From a virus (taxonomy: Duplodnaviria; Heunggongvirae; Uroviricota; Caudoviricetes): a stretch of 5,228 nucleotides of DNA. The translations under genes and the position numbers were made by a program. Where the stretch lies: IMG/VR virus record IMGVR_UViG_2778261673_000005; one strand, written 5' to 3'. Under the pieces are notes generated by a model. It was given only the letters and a program-made list of their open reading frames with translations, searched no databases and was not told the DNA's origin. This document shows positions 1-5,228 of the stretch, piece after piece. Numbering within the stretch: position 1 is the stretch's first letter; the number at the start of each line of letters is the position of its first letter.

Positions 1-50
1 AGCTGATAGAAACAGAAGCCACTGGAGCACCTCAAAAACACCATCATACA

Positions 51-332
51 CTAAATCAGTAAGTTGGCAGCATCACCCGCCGTGCCATCCTGAGAGAATT
101 CCATATGCAACCTGCATTTTTTCCCTTTCCAGTTATGCGGCTCATCAAGTTTGGCATTAATTGCAGCTCTGATTCCCCGCGCTTGCGCCCCCCATTCATC
201 CTGATCATCCCAGCGTCCTGAACTGCAACTACCTGTAGCAGTAGTTTTGTGGCAATCTGAAGGGTGTAAAGGTGTGCATCCCGCAACAAAACCGACCCAA
301 AAAGTCAACATAACGATTTTCTTTAATCCCAC
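51..332 (-). CDS. Small lipoprotein with partial TolA C-terminal-domain-like sequence (truncated paralog of the 483-911 gene)
   Basis: 93-aa ORF with GTG start at 332 preceded by GAGGAG about 6 nt upstream. N-terminus MGLKKIVMLTFWVGFVAGC has a hydrophobic signal segment and lipobox VAGC. C-terminal ARGIRAAINAKLDEPHNWKGKKCRLHMEFSQDG aligns by eye with AHQIKSAIEKQFGDASKYSGKECTLRMHMAPNG of the neighbouring ORF, but the protein ends before the rest of the domain. Confidence 0.55.
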   Translation of the reverse strand: MGLKKIVMLTFWVGFVAGCTPLHPSDCHKTTATGSCSSGRWDDQDEWGAQARGIRAAINAKLDEPHNWKGKKCRLHMEFSQDGTAGDAANLLI

Positions 333-482
333 TTCTTGCTCCTCAATCCATTAAAATCTCAGCAATAGTAGTTGTTACGTCCGCCACTGGCTCAGAGCTG
401 ACTATCCGCTAAATTTAGCTCAGTGCCGTAGCTGTGTCAGAACAAACCTAAGCCGAAACCGTTTATTACAAAACAATAAATA

Positions 483-911
483 TCAGGGTTTAAAATCCAG
501 CACCCCATTTTGAAATACTTTATATACTTCCGGCGAAGGGGGGGCAGGTATATCAGCATTCTTTATCGCATTCATCGCTTCACGACATAAATCGAGGTCT
601 CCACTTTCTCTTTTAACCTCCAGTAGAAGGCCATTCGGGGCCATATGCATTCTCAGTGTACACTCTTTTCCTGAATACTTACTCGCATCCCCGAACTGTT
701 TTTCGATGGCGCTCTTGATTTGATGGGCATACAGACGGATATCCTCACTAACATCAGAAGTACGTTCAGATGAACTCACATACTGTGTCTCTATTGCTTT
801 ATCGGAGTAATATGATGTACGGTCATGATAATTTGTCGATACAGCATCAGTGCACCCGATAATAATCCCACTAATAATCAACGTAAGAATTGATGCGCTA
901 CGAAAACCCAT
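483..911 (-). CDS. Lipoprotein carrying a TolA C-terminal (domain III)-like domain
   Basis: 142-aa ORF, ATG at 911 with GAGGA just upstream. Signal peptide plus lipobox (LIISGIIIGC). C-terminal ~85 aa (QIKSAIEKQFGDASKYSGKECTLRMHMAPNGLLLEVKRESGDLDLCREAMNAIKNADIPAPPSPEVYKVFQNGVLDFKP) closely resembles the C-terminal domain of E. coli TolA as recalled from memory, including the terminal FKP. Confidence 0.75.
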   Translation of the reverse strand: MGFRSASILTLIISGIIIGCTDAVSTNYHDRTSYYSDKAIETQYVSSSERTSDVSEDIRLYAHQIKSAIEKQFGDASKYSGKECTLRMHMAPNGLLLEVKRESGDLDLCREAMNAIKNADIPAPPSPEVYKVFQNGVLDFKP

Positions 912-940
912 TTTTCCTCACATATGTCATATAGTAAAGG

Positions 941-970
941 ATTATATATACCGTTGTTTTGGACGCTCAA
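941..970 (-). promoter_or_regulatory. Candidate sigma70 promoter for the TolA-like lipoprotein gene(s)
   Basis: On the minus strand: -35 TTGAGC (965-970), 18-bp spacer, -10 TATAAT (941-946), about 25-30 nt upstream of the ATG at 911. Sequence-only prediction. Confidence 0.4.
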
Positions 971-1112
971 ACAGCGAATCAGATCAAATAAAACGCACAT
1001 TTGTTAACATTTACACAAAGTCTGCGTGGGATATTCTGAAAGAATATCCATAATGTGGAGAGAATCTATTGAAGTGCATGGTGCCGGGTGCCTCCCGGTG
1101 AACAAAATGTTC

Positions 1113-1151
1113 GTGATACCTGTCGGCGACAGAAAAGGTTAATGGTATCAC
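1113..1151. repeat. Nested inverted repeats (possible protein-binding site or RNA structure)
   Basis: Outer 8-bp perfect inverted repeat GTGATACC (1113-1120) / GGTATCAC (1144-1151). It encloses the palindrome CTGTC-GGC-GACAG (1120-1132). A further short stem CCGGG/CCCGG lies at 1084-1098. Confidence 0.45.
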
Positions 1152-1508
1152 CCCACCGCACAGGGGGATTCACCATGCAGGAGTTTTCTTAGCAAACTCA
1201 CTGCGCGCCCGGCAACTCCCAACCACATAAAATGCGGAGTTTGTGGCATTTATGCATATAACTCGCAGGAATTATCTTAAAAAACTGATGTCGATCCGGA
1301 TTAAAAAGAAGCAGGTCATCATCAGATGACTGGAAAAAAGGAAAACAAAAAATACTCATCATACAGTTTTGATTGCAGGGATGAGCCTGCTATGCACAAT
1401 ATGCAGAATATAAGCAAGATAAAAATATGCAGGCATATTATTTCGGATTTTGTTATTAACACAACCTTTTTAATAATCATTTGGCATACAATAAACCAGC
1501 CCAGAAAG

Positions 1509-1528
1509 AACCGCCTAAACAGGCGGTT
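1509..1528. repeat. Perfect 8-bp stem, 4-nt loop hairpin
   Basis: AACCGCCT (1509-1516), loop AAAC, AGGCGGTT (1521-1528). On the minus strand it is followed by CTTTCT, so it could be a weak terminator or RNA element. Function unknown. Confidence 0.35.
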
Positions 1529-1772
1529 GGTCAATACAAAGGATGCTTCGTCTTTATTATAGTAATCTGAGGCGTCGGGTGTCTTGTATCAGACAACATA
1601 TTGTCCCGCTAAACAGCGAATTACAAACCACCCTGCAATGATCTCTCATCTCATTTTATATGAGTTGACGACATCAGGATAACGCATCATCAGCCCCTGC
1701 CAAGAAATATCAAAACTCCCGCCAGCAATGTGTTATCACAATATTGTAAAAAAAACACAGCACCGAAACTAT

Positions 1773-1811
1773 AACTGGTCTCTGTTATAATTTGGAGCAG
1801 AAAGACCAGTT
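1773..1811. repeat. 9-bp stem hairpin with 21-nt AT-rich loop
   Basis: AACTGGTCT (1773-1781) pairs with AGACCAGTT (1803-1811). The loop contains TATAAT. It lies about 35 bp from the symmetric terminator. Confidence 0.35.
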
Positions 1812-1845
1812 GCCCAACTAGCAGCATTCTCCCCTGCTTTCCTGA

Positions 1846-1878
1846 CGTAAAAAAACCGCATTAAGCGGTTTTTTTACG
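1846..1878. terminator. Symmetric (bidirectional) rho-independent terminator-like hairpin downstream of the Q-like gene
   Basis: Perfect 14-nt inverted repeat CGTAAAAAAACCGC (1846-1859) / GCGGTTTTTTTACG (1865-1878) with a 5-nt loop. GC core CCGC/GCGG is flanked by an A7 run on one side and a T7 run on the other, so either strand reads stem followed by a U-tract. Confidence 0.5.
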
Positions 1879-1955
1879 ATGTCCATGTCTGCAATCCGCC
1901 TCGCGATACAGCTTTGCGAAGCATAGCAAAATTGAAGCAGTTTATACGTAAGAAA

Positions 1956-2498
1956 TCAAGCCATTTTCTCAGCAAATGATTCACGCATGGGAATATATAG
2001 GGCATACTCAGCAACAGCTAACCAATTAGCAATCCGTTTTTCGCATGTGCTAAAACACCACTCTGGGTGTGCATCATTTAGCAATTCAGCCATTTTGCGC
2101 TTAGTCATCCCCCGCCCTTCATAGCGTTGCCGGAGAATGCAAATCAATCCTGGATGCTCTGCCAGCACCTCACTTATGACTCGATCAATACATAACGCCT
2201 CTGCATCAGTACAATGCGCCAGCCAGCTCTTTTGCTTGCCGTTGATCATCTCTCGCAAAAACGCTTCCAGCTCAGCTTTCTCTATTCCCGCTTTTTTCAT
2301 TCTGCGCAGGGCTTCATTAATGGCTGTTTTCGTCAGTTTTTTGGATGCCAACAACTGATTGAACATATTCCCTGACCTGCCACCGCCAATATACGACCAG
2401 CGCCCCCACATACGTAGTTTTCCCTGAATCCAGACACTTTCCAGCGTGGTGAGGCGAAGGTGTTCTCCGCTTTTTCCTGTATTCGTTGGGTAAATCAT
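1956..2498 (-). CDS. Putative late-gene antitermination protein, phage-82-type Q-like
   Basis: 180-aa ORF directly downstream of the nin-like genes and upstream of a terminator. Start overlaps the preceding gene stop in ATGA (2495-2498). Motifs LRMWGRW and CTDAEALCI resemble, from memory, the WG-W and Cys-rich signatures of phage-82-family Q proteins. Not verified by search. Confidence 0.55.
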   Translation of the reverse strand: MIYPTNTGKSGEHLRLTTLESVWIQGKLRMWGRWSYIGGGRSGNMFNQLLASKKLTKTAINEALRRMKKAGIEKAELEAFLREMINGKQKSWLAHCTDAEALCIDRVISEVLAEHPGLICILRQRYEGRGMTKRKMAELLNDAHPEWCFSTCEKRIANWLAVAEYALYIPMRESFAEKMA

Positions 2499-2785
2499 AA
2501 ATGACCTTTCTTTCTCCAGATTTCTTGTGTGCGAAAAACCCCTTCAGCATGCATCAGGCGCAATTCTTCTTTGGTGTAATCGCTGGTTTTTACCCGCCCG
2601 TCGATTAGATCGTGGCATGAGCTACAGGCTATCGCCGCCTGCATATCGTGTGGTTTTGTCGCTGTTCCGCACGTCCCCGCCAGCCTGTAATGCGCCAGCA
2701 CAGAGGTTTCGGGATTGTGATTGCAGTAGCCAGGGATTCTGATCTGGCACATCTGGCCTTTAGCCGCTTTACGTAAATTCACCAT
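2495..2785 (-). CDS. YbcO-like DUF1364 family phage protein (putative nuclease) of the nin region
   Basis: 96-aa ORF. LRKAAKGQMCQIRIPGYCNHNPETSVLAHYRLAGTCGTATKP...IACSSCHD matches the Cys/His-rich pattern of E. coli prophage YbcO (DUF1364) as recalled. Start ATG overlaps the upstream stop (TAATG at 2783-2787). Confidence 0.75.
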   Translation of the reverse strand: MVNLRKAAKGQMCQIRIPGYCNHNPETSVLAHYRLAGTCGTATKPHDMQAAIACSSCHDLIDGRVKTSDYTKEELRLMHAEGVFRTQEIWRKKGHL

Positions 2786-3384
2786 TACGCAAACTCCAGT
2801 AGTTGTGCGGCCACATTTTCAACTTCCTCCTGAGAGGAGAATTTACGGAACAGAATCCAGTTCCACAGCACATTCAGTACAGATTTATAAACCTGCTGAA
2901 ACTCGACTTCGTCCATATTCGCAAAAGCGATGGATTTTGCCCGACGCCCACGGCTACCGTCCGGATAAATATGCTCGGTGTAAAATCCGGCCTGAATGGT
3001 TACCCACTCGCGGAAAGCCTCAAACGACTTTAGCAACGCCGTATCCCGGGTTCTACGAGTCGCAACGGTGTTAAGGTATTGCTCTGCGGCATCACTCAGG
3101 GCTGATGTGTGTTCCCGACCAACTGATTCGCACAGGTAATCCACGAAACCAGACAGCAGTTCTCGTTCGCGAGGCGTGATCGCCCCACCGACCGGAGTCC
3201 AGTAATCGAATCCCAGTTGCAGGAGTTTGAAAAAACGCTTGTGGAATGCGTAGTTACGCACACGCTTAAAGTCTGCGTGTATCCACTCACCTATTTTGAT
3301 TTGATGCAGAAAATCGCAACTCTCCGGCGTCGCCGGGAGAAGTAAACCAGAAGAGGTTTGTTTGACCAGTTGTATATGCGCCAT
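2785..3384 (-). CDS. DUF1367-like lambdoid phage nin-region protein
   Basis: 199-aa ORF with GC-rich, host-like codon composition. Its size and its position immediately upstream of a DUF1364-like gene and Q match the DUF1367-DUF1364-Q neighbourhood recalled from enterobacterial prophages. Family assignment is from memory only. Confidence 0.6.
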   Translation of the reverse strand: MAHIQLVKQTSSGLLLPATPESCDFLHQIKIGEWIHADFKRVRNYAFHKRFFKLLQLGFDYWTPVGGAITPRERELLSGFVDYLCESVGREHTSALSDAAEQYLNTVATRRTRDTALLKSFEAFREWVTIQAGFYTEHIYPDGSRGRRAKSIAFANMDEVEFQQVYKSVLNVLWNWILFRKFSSQEEVENVAAQLLEFA

Positions 3385-3442
3385 TTCTCAATCTCTCGAT
3401 GGCGCAGTGCAGCAGATGCCAGTTGTTCAGGCTGACGTATAA

Positions 3443-3470
3443 AGTATAAATAAACTGGTTCCAGTGTAAA
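3443..3470 (-). promoter_or_regulatory. Candidate sigma70 promoter for the nin-like/Q operon
   Basis: On the minus strand: -35 TTTACA (3465-3470), 16-bp spacer, -10 TATACT (3443-3448), about 55 nt upstream of the ATG at 3384. It lies downstream of the terminator that ends the S8 gene. Sequence-only prediction in AT-rich DNA. Confidence 0.35.
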
Positions 3471-3506
3471 GCCCCCACATTGATGGAATAAAAATCAAAC
3501 AATAGA

Positions 3507-3536
3507 TTGCTGGGATAAAAATACAACGCTTATTAT
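3507..3536 (+). promoter_or_regulatory. Candidate promoter for the small hydrophobic ORF
   Basis: -35 TTGCTG (3507-3512), 18-bp spacer, -10 TATTAT (3531-3536). This would give a leader of roughly 115 nt before the ATG at 3659. Weak prediction; other hexamer pairs in this AT-rich region are possible. Confidence 0.2.
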
Positions 3537-3658
3537 TAAAGCGGTTAGACAAATTAAATTTTAATGTTATGCAAATCTGCCAGATTAGCATAATATCTCA
3601 TTTGAAAACCGCTGAAATAACAATCTTATCAGGATTAATCATATTAAGGTGAGTAAAT

Positions 3659-3745
3659 ATGGAAAACAACAAATCTGCACATTACGCTCCTTTTTTATCT
3701 GTAATACTTTTTGTATTTTGTTGTGTATGGGCGGTATTTTTATAA
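3659..3745 (+). CDS. Unlisted small ORF encoding a 28-aa hydrophobic peptide (candidate small membrane protein or toxin-like peptide)
   Basis: ATG at 3659 preceded by AAGGTGA (3646-3652) with 6-nt spacing. Translation is MENNKSAHYAPFLSVILFVFCCVWAVFL, stop TAA at 3743-3745: a polar N-terminus followed by one 17-residue hydrophobic segment. It is followed 14 nt later by the strong hairpin at 3759-3792. Absent from the ORF track, presumably because of a length cutoff. Confidence 0.45.
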   Translation: MENNKSAHYAPFLSVILFVFCCVWAVFL

Positions 3746-3758
3746 AACACACCCACAA

Positions 3759-3792
3759 ATAAATCAAACCCGCTACAGCGGGTTTGATTTAT
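3759..3792. terminator. Strong hairpin terminator between the convergent small ORF (+) and S8 peptidase gene (-)
   Basis: 15-bp perfect stem 3759-3773 / 3778-3792 (core AAATCAAACCCGC / GCGGGTTTGATTT) with 4-nt loop TACA. It lies 7 nt beyond the S8 stop on the minus strand and 14 nt beyond the small-ORF stop on the plus strand. T-rich flanks on both sides but no clean U-run. Confidence 0.55.
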
Positions 3793-3799
3793 ATAGTTG

Positions 3800-5167
3800 T
3801 TATACGGAAACTGGCACACGAGCAGGCAATGGATAGTGAGCCCAGTTATTAGCATTTAAAGCTCTTACACCATCAGCATAAACTTGTGTGTTTCCATCTA
3901 ATGATTTTAAAGTTACTACAATAGTTACAGGTAAAGGCTCCATTAAGGCCGGTTCATTCGCTCTCAACGTTGTTTTAGCCTGAAGAGCCCAGTTACCCGA
4001 AGTAATTCCTTTATTAAATGCCTTGCGATGAATTTTTACTGGTGACCACTTTCCACCATGCTCAATTTGAGCTCTCTCATATCCAGATTGACCGTTTTCT
4101 CCTTCCATAGGCACTTTTCCTTTTATAGTATTATTCTCAATTAAGCCAAAACTTAGCTCTACGTTCGCGCGAACATATTCACTGCCGGCATTAGGGTTTA
4201 GTGGTGGTGCATATGCAGCAGTAATTACAATCTCACCTTTAAATTTTCCATTTTGAATAAGTGCCGATGGTATGGGATAGTTTTCCTTTCTCCACCTCAC
4301 CCCAGGAACCAAGAATGTTTGGAAAATCAGAGTAAACCTATCATCACTATCATATAAGGTCTCAATAACCTCATTAGGAATTCCCGCTCCCAAATAGCGT
4401 CTTTCACTTGGCGAGTAATCAGGAGAAGATAATTGAGCGGAATGAATTAATAATGCTTTAATCAATGATGGTGAAACATTAAAGTCTGAATTAGTGGCTA
4501 TTCTCTGCCATGTATGCGCAGCTAAACTTGCCACAATTGGAGCAGCAAAACTAGTACCAAAATTAGAGCAAAGCCTATTATCTGGCCCTACGACCTTTAA
4601 ACTGCTTGCTCCTACATTCCAAGGTCTATGAACCCCACCGCCAGCATGGATTATATCTGGCTTTGGAGTAAATACAGGCCCAGGGCCACGACGAGTATAT
4701 GGTGTCGGTGTTCCAATTTCACTTAAAGCATCATTAGCTTCCATATGAGAAACTGAACCAACTGTTAGTGCTCGGACTGACTCTCCAGGAGAGGAAATTA
4801 AATCAGCACCTCCAAGCGGATCAGGATTTGGCCATGTACGTATAGGTTCATCTACATAATTACCTGCAGCAACTACAAACAAAATACCAAATTTATCGCT
4901 GAGCCGATCTAACTCCATCGCAAAATCACTAAACATCTGCTCATTACATGGTCCGCCTCCCAAAGACAAATTCCAGACTTTTATATCTGGTCTTTTATTT
5001 ACAGCATCTGCTAGCCTCAGAATTAAATCTGATATATAAGATCCATTTTCATCTAAAGCACAAACATCATGGATTTTAGATTTTGTATCAGGAATCCATG
5101 GATGATTGTCATTTAAAAAATGAGCGCCTGATATCAATGAAGACACCATAGTGATCTTACCCAGCAA
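3800..5167 (-). CDS. S8 family (subtilisin-like) serine peptidase homolog with uncharacterised C-terminal extension; N-terminal catalytic motifs not recognisable (possibly truncated or inactive)
   Basis: 455-aa ORF. Contains S8 hallmarks GTSFAAP (catalytic Ser motif), VVAAGN (oxyanion-hole Asn motif) and NLSLGGG, in subtilisin-like order and spacing. No D-[ST]-G Asp motif or canonical HGT His motif precedes them. The first in-frame start is TTG at 5167 with no clear SD; alternative ATG at 5149. An in-frame TGA lies at 5198-5200. About 200 C-terminal residues have no family I can recognise. GC content is visibly lower than the nin block. Confidence 0.7.
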   Translation of the reverse strand: MLGKITMVSSLISGAHFLNDNHPWIPDTKSKIHDVCALDENGSYISDLILRLADAVNKRPDIKVWNLSLGGGPCNEQMFSDFAMELDRLSDKFGILFVVAAGNYVDEPIRTWPNPDPLGGADLISSPGESVRALTVGSVSHMEANDALSEIGTPTPYTRRGPGPVFTPKPDIIHAGGGVHRPWNVGASSLKVVGPDNRLCSNFGTSFAAPIVASLAAHTWQRIATNSDFNVSPSLIKALLIHSAQLSSPDYSPSERRYLGAGIPNEVIETLYDSDDRFTLIFQTFLVPGVRWRKENYPIPSALIQNGKFKGEIVITAAYAPPLNPNAGSEYVRANVELSFGLIENNTIKGKVPMEGENGQSGYERAQIEHGGKWSPVKIHRKAFNKGITSGNWALQAKTTLRANEPALMEPLPVTIVVTLKSLDGNTQVYADGVRALNANNWAHYPLPARVPVSV

Positions 5168-5216
5168 TAGTGGACACGCGGCTAAGTGAGTAAACTCTCA
5201 GTCAGAGGTGACTCAC

Positions 5217-5228
5217 ATGACAAAAACA
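5217..5228 (+). CDS. Probable start of a rightward gene running out of the window (product unknown)
   Basis: ATG at 5217 (ATG ACA AAA ACA = MTKT) preceded by AGAGGTGA (5204-5211) with 5-nt spacing. Only four codons are visible. Confidence 0.25.

Follow-up and report, generated by a model that had tools for sequence, protein, structure and literature searches.

IS3 disruption of iteS as the probable reason why a prophage-borne S8 protease reading frame lacks its catalytic Asp and His

IetAS, for which NCBI uses the name IteAS, is a two-gene system composed of an AAA+ ATPase (IteA) and a subtilisin-like S8 protease (IteS). It was first described as a plasmid-stabilising toxin–antitoxin pair in which the serine protease is the toxin and the ATPase is the antitoxin (PMC13069673), and bioRxiv 10.1101/2022.08.27.505566 cites Gao et al. 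(2020) for IetAS as an anti-phage system. Protease activity is critical for IetAS defence, the mechanism of which is unknown (PMC13069673), and for one ietAS homologue, that of B. cereus, abortive infection is the suspected mode of action (PMC13069673; bioRxiv 10.1101/2022.08.27.505566).

The stretch of viral DNA analysed here (5,228 nucleotides, hereafter the window) carries near one end a minus-strand ORF (5167..3800) that begins with TTG and encodes 455 amino acids resembling only part of such a protease. A regular-expression scan found SLGG (residue 68), AAGN (residue 100) and GTS (residues 204–206) in this ORF and no instance of D[ST]G, HG[TS] or H.T, and Asp and His motifs were likewise absent from all six frames of window 5168–5228, in agreement with a sequence-only reading that had reported neither D-[ST]-G nor HGT in the ORF or in the remaining 60 nt. 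The ORF passed the gathering score of the Pfam Peptidase_S8 family (PF00082; 80.1 bits versus a cutoff of 21.8) with an alignment that covered profile positions 80–275 of 288 only, the part bearing Asp and His being absent. The alignment to an S8 profile that the sequence-only reading had proposed thus yielded no complete triad within the 455 residues: of the Asp, His and Ser that S8 peptidases carry in that order, the ORF has the Ser, together with the Asn block, only. A PDB sequence search gave a similar picture, in that the Ser-containing half aligned to subtilases and nothing was returned from which Asp or His could be mapped. The sequence-only reading had offered three explanations for these absences, namely a 5′-truncated remnant, a catalytically altered pseudo-protease, or the downstream part of a gene disrupted by rearrangement or sequencing error. 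The features that bear on the choice are listed below.

1..77, no strand assigned: IS1 terminus of 77 nt (...ATCAGTAAGTTGGCAGCATCACC, ending at 77), matching annotated IS1A/IS1B transposase
3759..3792, no strand assigned: hairpin with a 15-bp, GC-centred stem just past the iteS stop, from a terminator scan
3800..5152, minus strand: 3′ fragment of iteS (ietS), codons 305–754 plus stop; 1353 nt with 0 mismatches to iteS of E. coli SCU-104 (L002)
5152..5228, plus strand: IS3 left end, its first 77 nt, with the left inverted repeat (TGATCTTACCCAGCAATAGTGG...), leader and insE start, from identity to IS3 copies
5153..5167, minus strand: spurious N terminus of the ORF, TTG plus 4 codons (M-L-G-K-I), all of it IS3 inverted repeat, from the IS3 boundary at 5152
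5198..5200, minus strand: in-frame TGA inside IS3 (minus frame 0, CFCHVSHL followed by the stop)
5217..5228, plus strand: start of IS3 orfA (insE), MTKT..., with its Shine–Dalgarno (SD) sequence AGAGGTGA, from translation and alignment to K-12 insE1 and to the start of the E2 IS3 transposase CDS

Judged by its alignments, the ORF is a fragment of an iteS gene and not a functional member of the IteS family. Its residues 6–455 correspond to residues 305–754 of the intact, 754-aa IteS WP_016232657.1, with 450 of 450 amino acids identical. The PADLOC model for IetS (PDLC02197) matched with E=5e-212, aligning ORF residues 6–454 to profile positions 297–748 of 749, and the NCBIfam model for IteS (NF042956) gave 740.6 bits over profile positions 295–747 of 747, which is below its 900-bit cutoff, as compared with 1042.8 bits over positions 1–747 for the intact homologue. 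The ORF is therefore not a full-length equivalog by NF042956, and it is identical in sequence to the corresponding part of a bona fide IteS. The fragment 3800..5152 keeps VVAAGN, with the oxyanion Asn, and GTSFAAP, with the catalytic Ser, and is without D273 and H303.

A megablast search of 5426 complete E. coli genomes returned 78 that matched with at least 80% query coverage; all 30 of the matches listed were annotated 'iteS: S8 family anti-phage peptidase IteS' and aligned from window position 5152 downward. Window 78–5152 is 99.9% identical to a Rac-like prophage of E. coli F2_81 (L001). In both SCU-104 and F2_81 the intact iteS has 754 codons, overlaps an upstream gene annotated 'anti-phage ATPase IteA', and is part of a Rac-like prophage (racR, ydaS/T/U/V ... 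DUF1367, DUF1364, DUF1133, TolA-like, lysis genes, trkG). In all 78 complete E. coli genomes with this iteAS, the pair is colinear and free of IS elements, with iteA immediately upstream of iteS and overlapping it. The prophage that carries the iteAS locus represented here as cargo is lambdoid and Rac-like and belongs to E. coli or a close relative, and the hairpin at 3759..3792 is likely to be the intrinsic terminator of the iteAS operon.

Intact IteS supplies what the window ORF lacks. It reads ...PIVAVFDTGVS...DTSYEHGTMVSSLISGAHF... and, around the break (marked by a slash), ...VAVFDTGVS...YEHGT/MVSSLISGAHF..., with the native sequence of the window ORF beginning at T305. Its motifs are DTG at 273–275, HGT at 303–305, AAGN at 399–402 and GTS at 503–505, giving D273, H303, N402 and S505. 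D273, H303 and S505 aligned with D32, H64 and S221 of subtilisin BPN′ in a MAFFT alignment, and the Pfam S8 profile aligned to intact IteS over positions 5–274. On this evidence the IteS family is a normal D-H-S subtilase, and it is because the gene has been cut, and not because this member of the family is divergent, that the window ORF is without the Asp and His blocks. T305, the first native residue in the window, comes two residues after H303, and D273 is another 30 residues upstream of that His; the sequence-only reading, which had expected the His within the first ~16 residues of the ORF and the Asp about 30 residues further upstream, was almost exact in its spacing.

What abuts codon 305 in the window is the end of a mobile element. 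IS3 belongs to the IS3 family, is 1258 bp long, carries insE and insF with a programmed frameshift, and makes a 3-bp target duplication, which at the iteS site is expected to be CTA. The left end of an IS3 copy in E. coli E2 agrees with window 5152–5228 at 77 of 77 nt, and the flanks before 5152 are unrelated. K-12 IS3A, which is three terminal bases (TGA) shorter, matches the window from TCTTACCC on, and TGATC is exactly where homology to the various IS3 copies sets in. The right end of K-12 IS3A is the matching inverted repeat, TGATCCTACCCAC. More than 4300 of the 5426 complete E. coli genomes matched the 77-nt stretch, annotated 'IS3-like element IS3 family transposase'. The window thus has the terminal inverted repeat that marks IS3, TGATC(T/C)TACCCA..., with the insE ATG at its canonical distance, 65 nt from the terminus.

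Across the junction the plus strand reads ...GACACCATAG / TGATCTTACCCAGCAATAGTGGACACGCGGCTAAGTGAGTAAACTCTCAGTCAGAGGTGACTCACATGACAAAAACA. Base 5152 is the only one common to the iteS and IS3 homologies, and the sixth codon of the 455-aa ORF, ACT, spans the boundary. Both sides of the junction are identified, and its position is fixed to the base. Intact iteS at the insertion site reads ...CATGGGACTATGGTG.... On the assumption of a 3-bp duplication, we derived the second junction expected on the far side of the element as …GAACATGGGACTA / TGATCCTACCCAC (iteS to codon 305, with the CTA duplication), which in iteS sense is GAGTTATGAACATGGGACTA / TGATCCTACCCAC, the right end of IS3 on its own sense strand being …GTGGGTAGGATCA.

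The TGA at 5200–5198, which shares the reading frame of the TTG at 5167 and closes the ORF upstream, lies inside IS3, and the plus-strand ATG at 5217–5219, which is preceded by the SD sequence and opens the peptide MTKT, is the start of insE. Both signals had been placed correctly by the sequence-only reading, which had missed that they belong to IS3, as do the TTG and the first five codons of the ORF itself. As IS3 supplies all three signals (the TTG, the upstream TGA and the divergent ATG), the ORF is bounded by one mobile element and not by two features, and because the window ends in IS3, the missing motifs could never have been present in its last ~60 nt.

Disruption of iteS by IS3 very probably explains the missing Asp and His, as judged from the sequences on the two sides of the junction. 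IS3 would sit in iteS in the opposite orientation, with its left inverted repeat abutting codon T305, two codons past His303. The fragment in the window, the 3′ 60% of iteS, would thereby be separated from the codons for Asp273 and His303, from the entire N-terminal domain and from the start codon, promoter and iteA. On the minus strand we found no promoter-like site before either candidate start (TTG at 5167, ATG at 5149), and inspection by eye revealed no SD sequence there. Having no native start, no promoter and only one of the three triad residues, the window fragment is best regarded as a dead pseudogene, the product of which should be inactive. Such a disruption is an ordinary gene-killing event in a known defence gene, not a novel one.

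If IS3 did disrupt the gene, simple transposition is the likely course, in which case the 5′ half of iteS and iteA would lie ~1.26 kb away, beyond the element. An IS3-mediated rearrangement (recombination between copies, or an adjacent deletion or inversion) could instead have deleted iteA and the 5′ part of iteS, or moved them elsewhere, and left an orphan fragment beside an IS3. The far side of IS3 falls outside the window, a second element, IS1, interrupts this 5.2-kb stretch at its other end in a genome that appears IS-rich and prone to such events, and loss of the antitoxin gene iteA should be tolerable once the toxin gene is dead, as would follow from the roles assigned to the two proteins (PMC13069673). 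Nothing speaks directly against such a history, and a junction exactly at the IS terminus is expected under simple insertion and rearrangement alike, but simple transposition is the commonest origin of junctions of this kind, and we consider a rearrangement unlikely. We regard it as very improbable that the join between iteS and IS3 is a chimeric path through a de Bruijn graph and that the gene is intact in the organism. The junction does lie 77 nt from the contig end, is seen from the assembled sequence alone, and occurs in no other genome searched; however, the homology switches precisely where the IS3 inverted repeat begins, as it does in real insertions, a chimera needs a shared k-mer and iteS and IS3 share the single base 5152, and a transition from unique to repeated sequence at a contig end is the normal signature of a true IS insertion.

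The remaining readings would give the fragment a role of its own, as a naturally shortened and altered pseudo-protease or as a C-terminal fragment translated from the IS3-borne TTG or from the ATG at 5149 and acting as a decoy or regulator. A 455-aa open frame does persist, and gene callers give a 449-aa product from an internal ATG (M306) on other contigs, but those calls are contig-end artefacts or, in one contig (L003), come from an iteS disrupted by another IS, and in either case DTG and HGT lie upstream. The window fragment has 0 mismatches to the intact gene, leaving no independent evolution visible, neither start is preceded by a promoter-like site or an SD sequence, and with Asp and His missing it would lack the protease activity that published mutants show to be needed for defence (PMC13069673). 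We therefore give this idea hardly any credence. It would be similarly far-fetched to propose that an IS3-fused C-terminal IteS, comprising the Asn/Ser half and a C-terminal domain of ~200 aa, still binds IteA or the phage trigger and, being protease-dead, works as a decoy that modulates defence or toxicity. Among the three explanations in the sequence-only reading, the 5′-truncated remnant and, in substance, the gene disrupted by rearrangement survive. The catalytically altered pseudo-protease does not, given that the 1353 nt match, without mismatch, a normal iteS gene in which canonical DTG and HGT are encoded further 5′; nor does an indel or sequencing error around 5160–5210, since everything past 5152 matches the IS3 left end perfectly.

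The IS3 disruption of iteS appears to be private to the source strain. A 44-mer across the iteS–IS3 junction was absent from species-representative genomes, IMG/VR and JGI metagenome contigs, the exact junction was spanned by none of the 5426 complete E. coli genomes, and the predicted second junction, between iteS and the IS3 right end, was not found in the public collections scanned. The 455-aa product is not on record. The 449-aa product starting at the internal ATG (M306 of IteS) was found on 23 contigs; in all eight that we inspected, native iteS with DTG and HGT lay upstream of the call, and in none of them was the IS3 junction present. The inspected calls are contig-end gene-calling artefacts except in L003.

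That exception (GCA_013156805.1, AATUFH010000040.1, ~1030–1175) is an independent disruption of iteS, with the DTG and HGT motifs kept upstream of the 449-aa call: an IS5-type element (DUF772 plus DDE_Tnp_1 transposase) is inserted at about codon 123, and iteS resumes at about codon 124 (ESVILNRNIK...). In three of the 78 matching complete genomes (H103, NZ_CP038505.1; H107, NZ_AP040205.1; H108, NZ_CP196120.1), iteS is annotated as an 'S8 family peptidase' plus a 'hypothetical protein', with H108 aligning one base short. These split annotations suggest point or frameshift disruption and fit recurrent decay of the protease gene. We also considered whether the IS3-family element in F2_81 was the same event as that in the window and rejected the idea, as iteS is intact in F2_81 and the element lies downstream of it, in the region corresponding to window 3646–3652. 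This element (L001 7507–8814; ~1.3 kb, annotated with an AL1L pseudoknot frameshift signal) lies between the iteS terminator region and the DUF1367 gene; window 3646–3652 aligns on both sides of it, and the segment appears to have been duplicated around it.

The other end of the window has a similar structure. Positions 1–77 end in ...GGCAGCATCACC at 77, and homology to the F2_81 prophage begins at 78. Here IS1 truncates a prophage gene resembling the TolA C-terminal domain (78–332, minus strand), leaving a 93-aa ORF that runs into IS1 versus 124 aa in relatives. Both ends of the window are thus multicopy IS elements, represented by exactly 77 nt each (IS1 and IS3), and the window is probably an entire k=77 short-read de Bruijn-graph contig broken in repeats at both ends. 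It would end where it does because a short-read assembler working at k=77 cannot cross a multicopy IS. The two elements also suggest that the source of the window was an IS-rich strain.

Several other observations concern the prophage surrounding iteS. GC content is ~0.34–0.43 over the iteS fragment and its 3′ flank (window 3400–5150) versus ~0.50 in the adjacent NinB-like and YbcO-like genes, a contrast that fits iteAS being horizontally acquired cargo (a moron) inside the prophage. In L004, L005, L008 and L010 this iteS allele (99% identical) is found in another lambdoid setting, where genes for DUF968/HNH, RusA, Antiterm-Q and an N6/N4 methyltransferase lie downstream of it; its presence in two lambdoid contexts indicates that the cassette moves between prophage backbones while keeping the same nin-region position. 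Elsewhere in the window, a match to the gammaproteobacterial sRNA STnc100 (Rfam RF02076) at 1022–1208 on the minus strand scored 86.6 bits versus a gathering score of 47 and sits in an ORF-poor stretch of ~1 kb between the DUF1133 Q-like and TolA-like genes.

For annotation, these results argue for labelling the ORF as an IS3-disrupted iteS pseudogene, neither as a 455-aa S8 peptidase nor as a pseudo-protease, and the strain from which the window came should not be counted as having a functional IetAS defence. Alongside the IS5-type insertion in L003 and the three complete genomes in which the annotation of iteS is split, it offers another example of loss of the toxic protease in a toxin–antitoxin-like defence system. 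As IteS is the toxic partner of the pair, its loss may have been tolerated for that reason; inactivation of the toxin would be the direction in which decay is expected to be tolerated, which is a minor biological point.

With subtilisin-type S8 peptidases (PF00082) the window ORF shares SLGG, VVAAGN with the oxyanion Asn and GTSFAAP with the nucleophile Ser, in canonical order, but it is without the Asp and His blocks and its alignment begins at profile position 80. With IteS/IetS it shares the prophage setting, upstream of the DUF1367 (NinB-like), DUF1364 (YbcO) and DUF1133 (Q-like) genes of a Rac-like prophage, whereas it is without the first 304 codons (D273 and H303 included), the native start and, within the window, iteA. 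With IS3 the window shares the inverted repeat TGATCTTACCC... and the insE start MTKT, but it holds the first 77 nt only, the transposase genes, right end and target duplication lying outside it.
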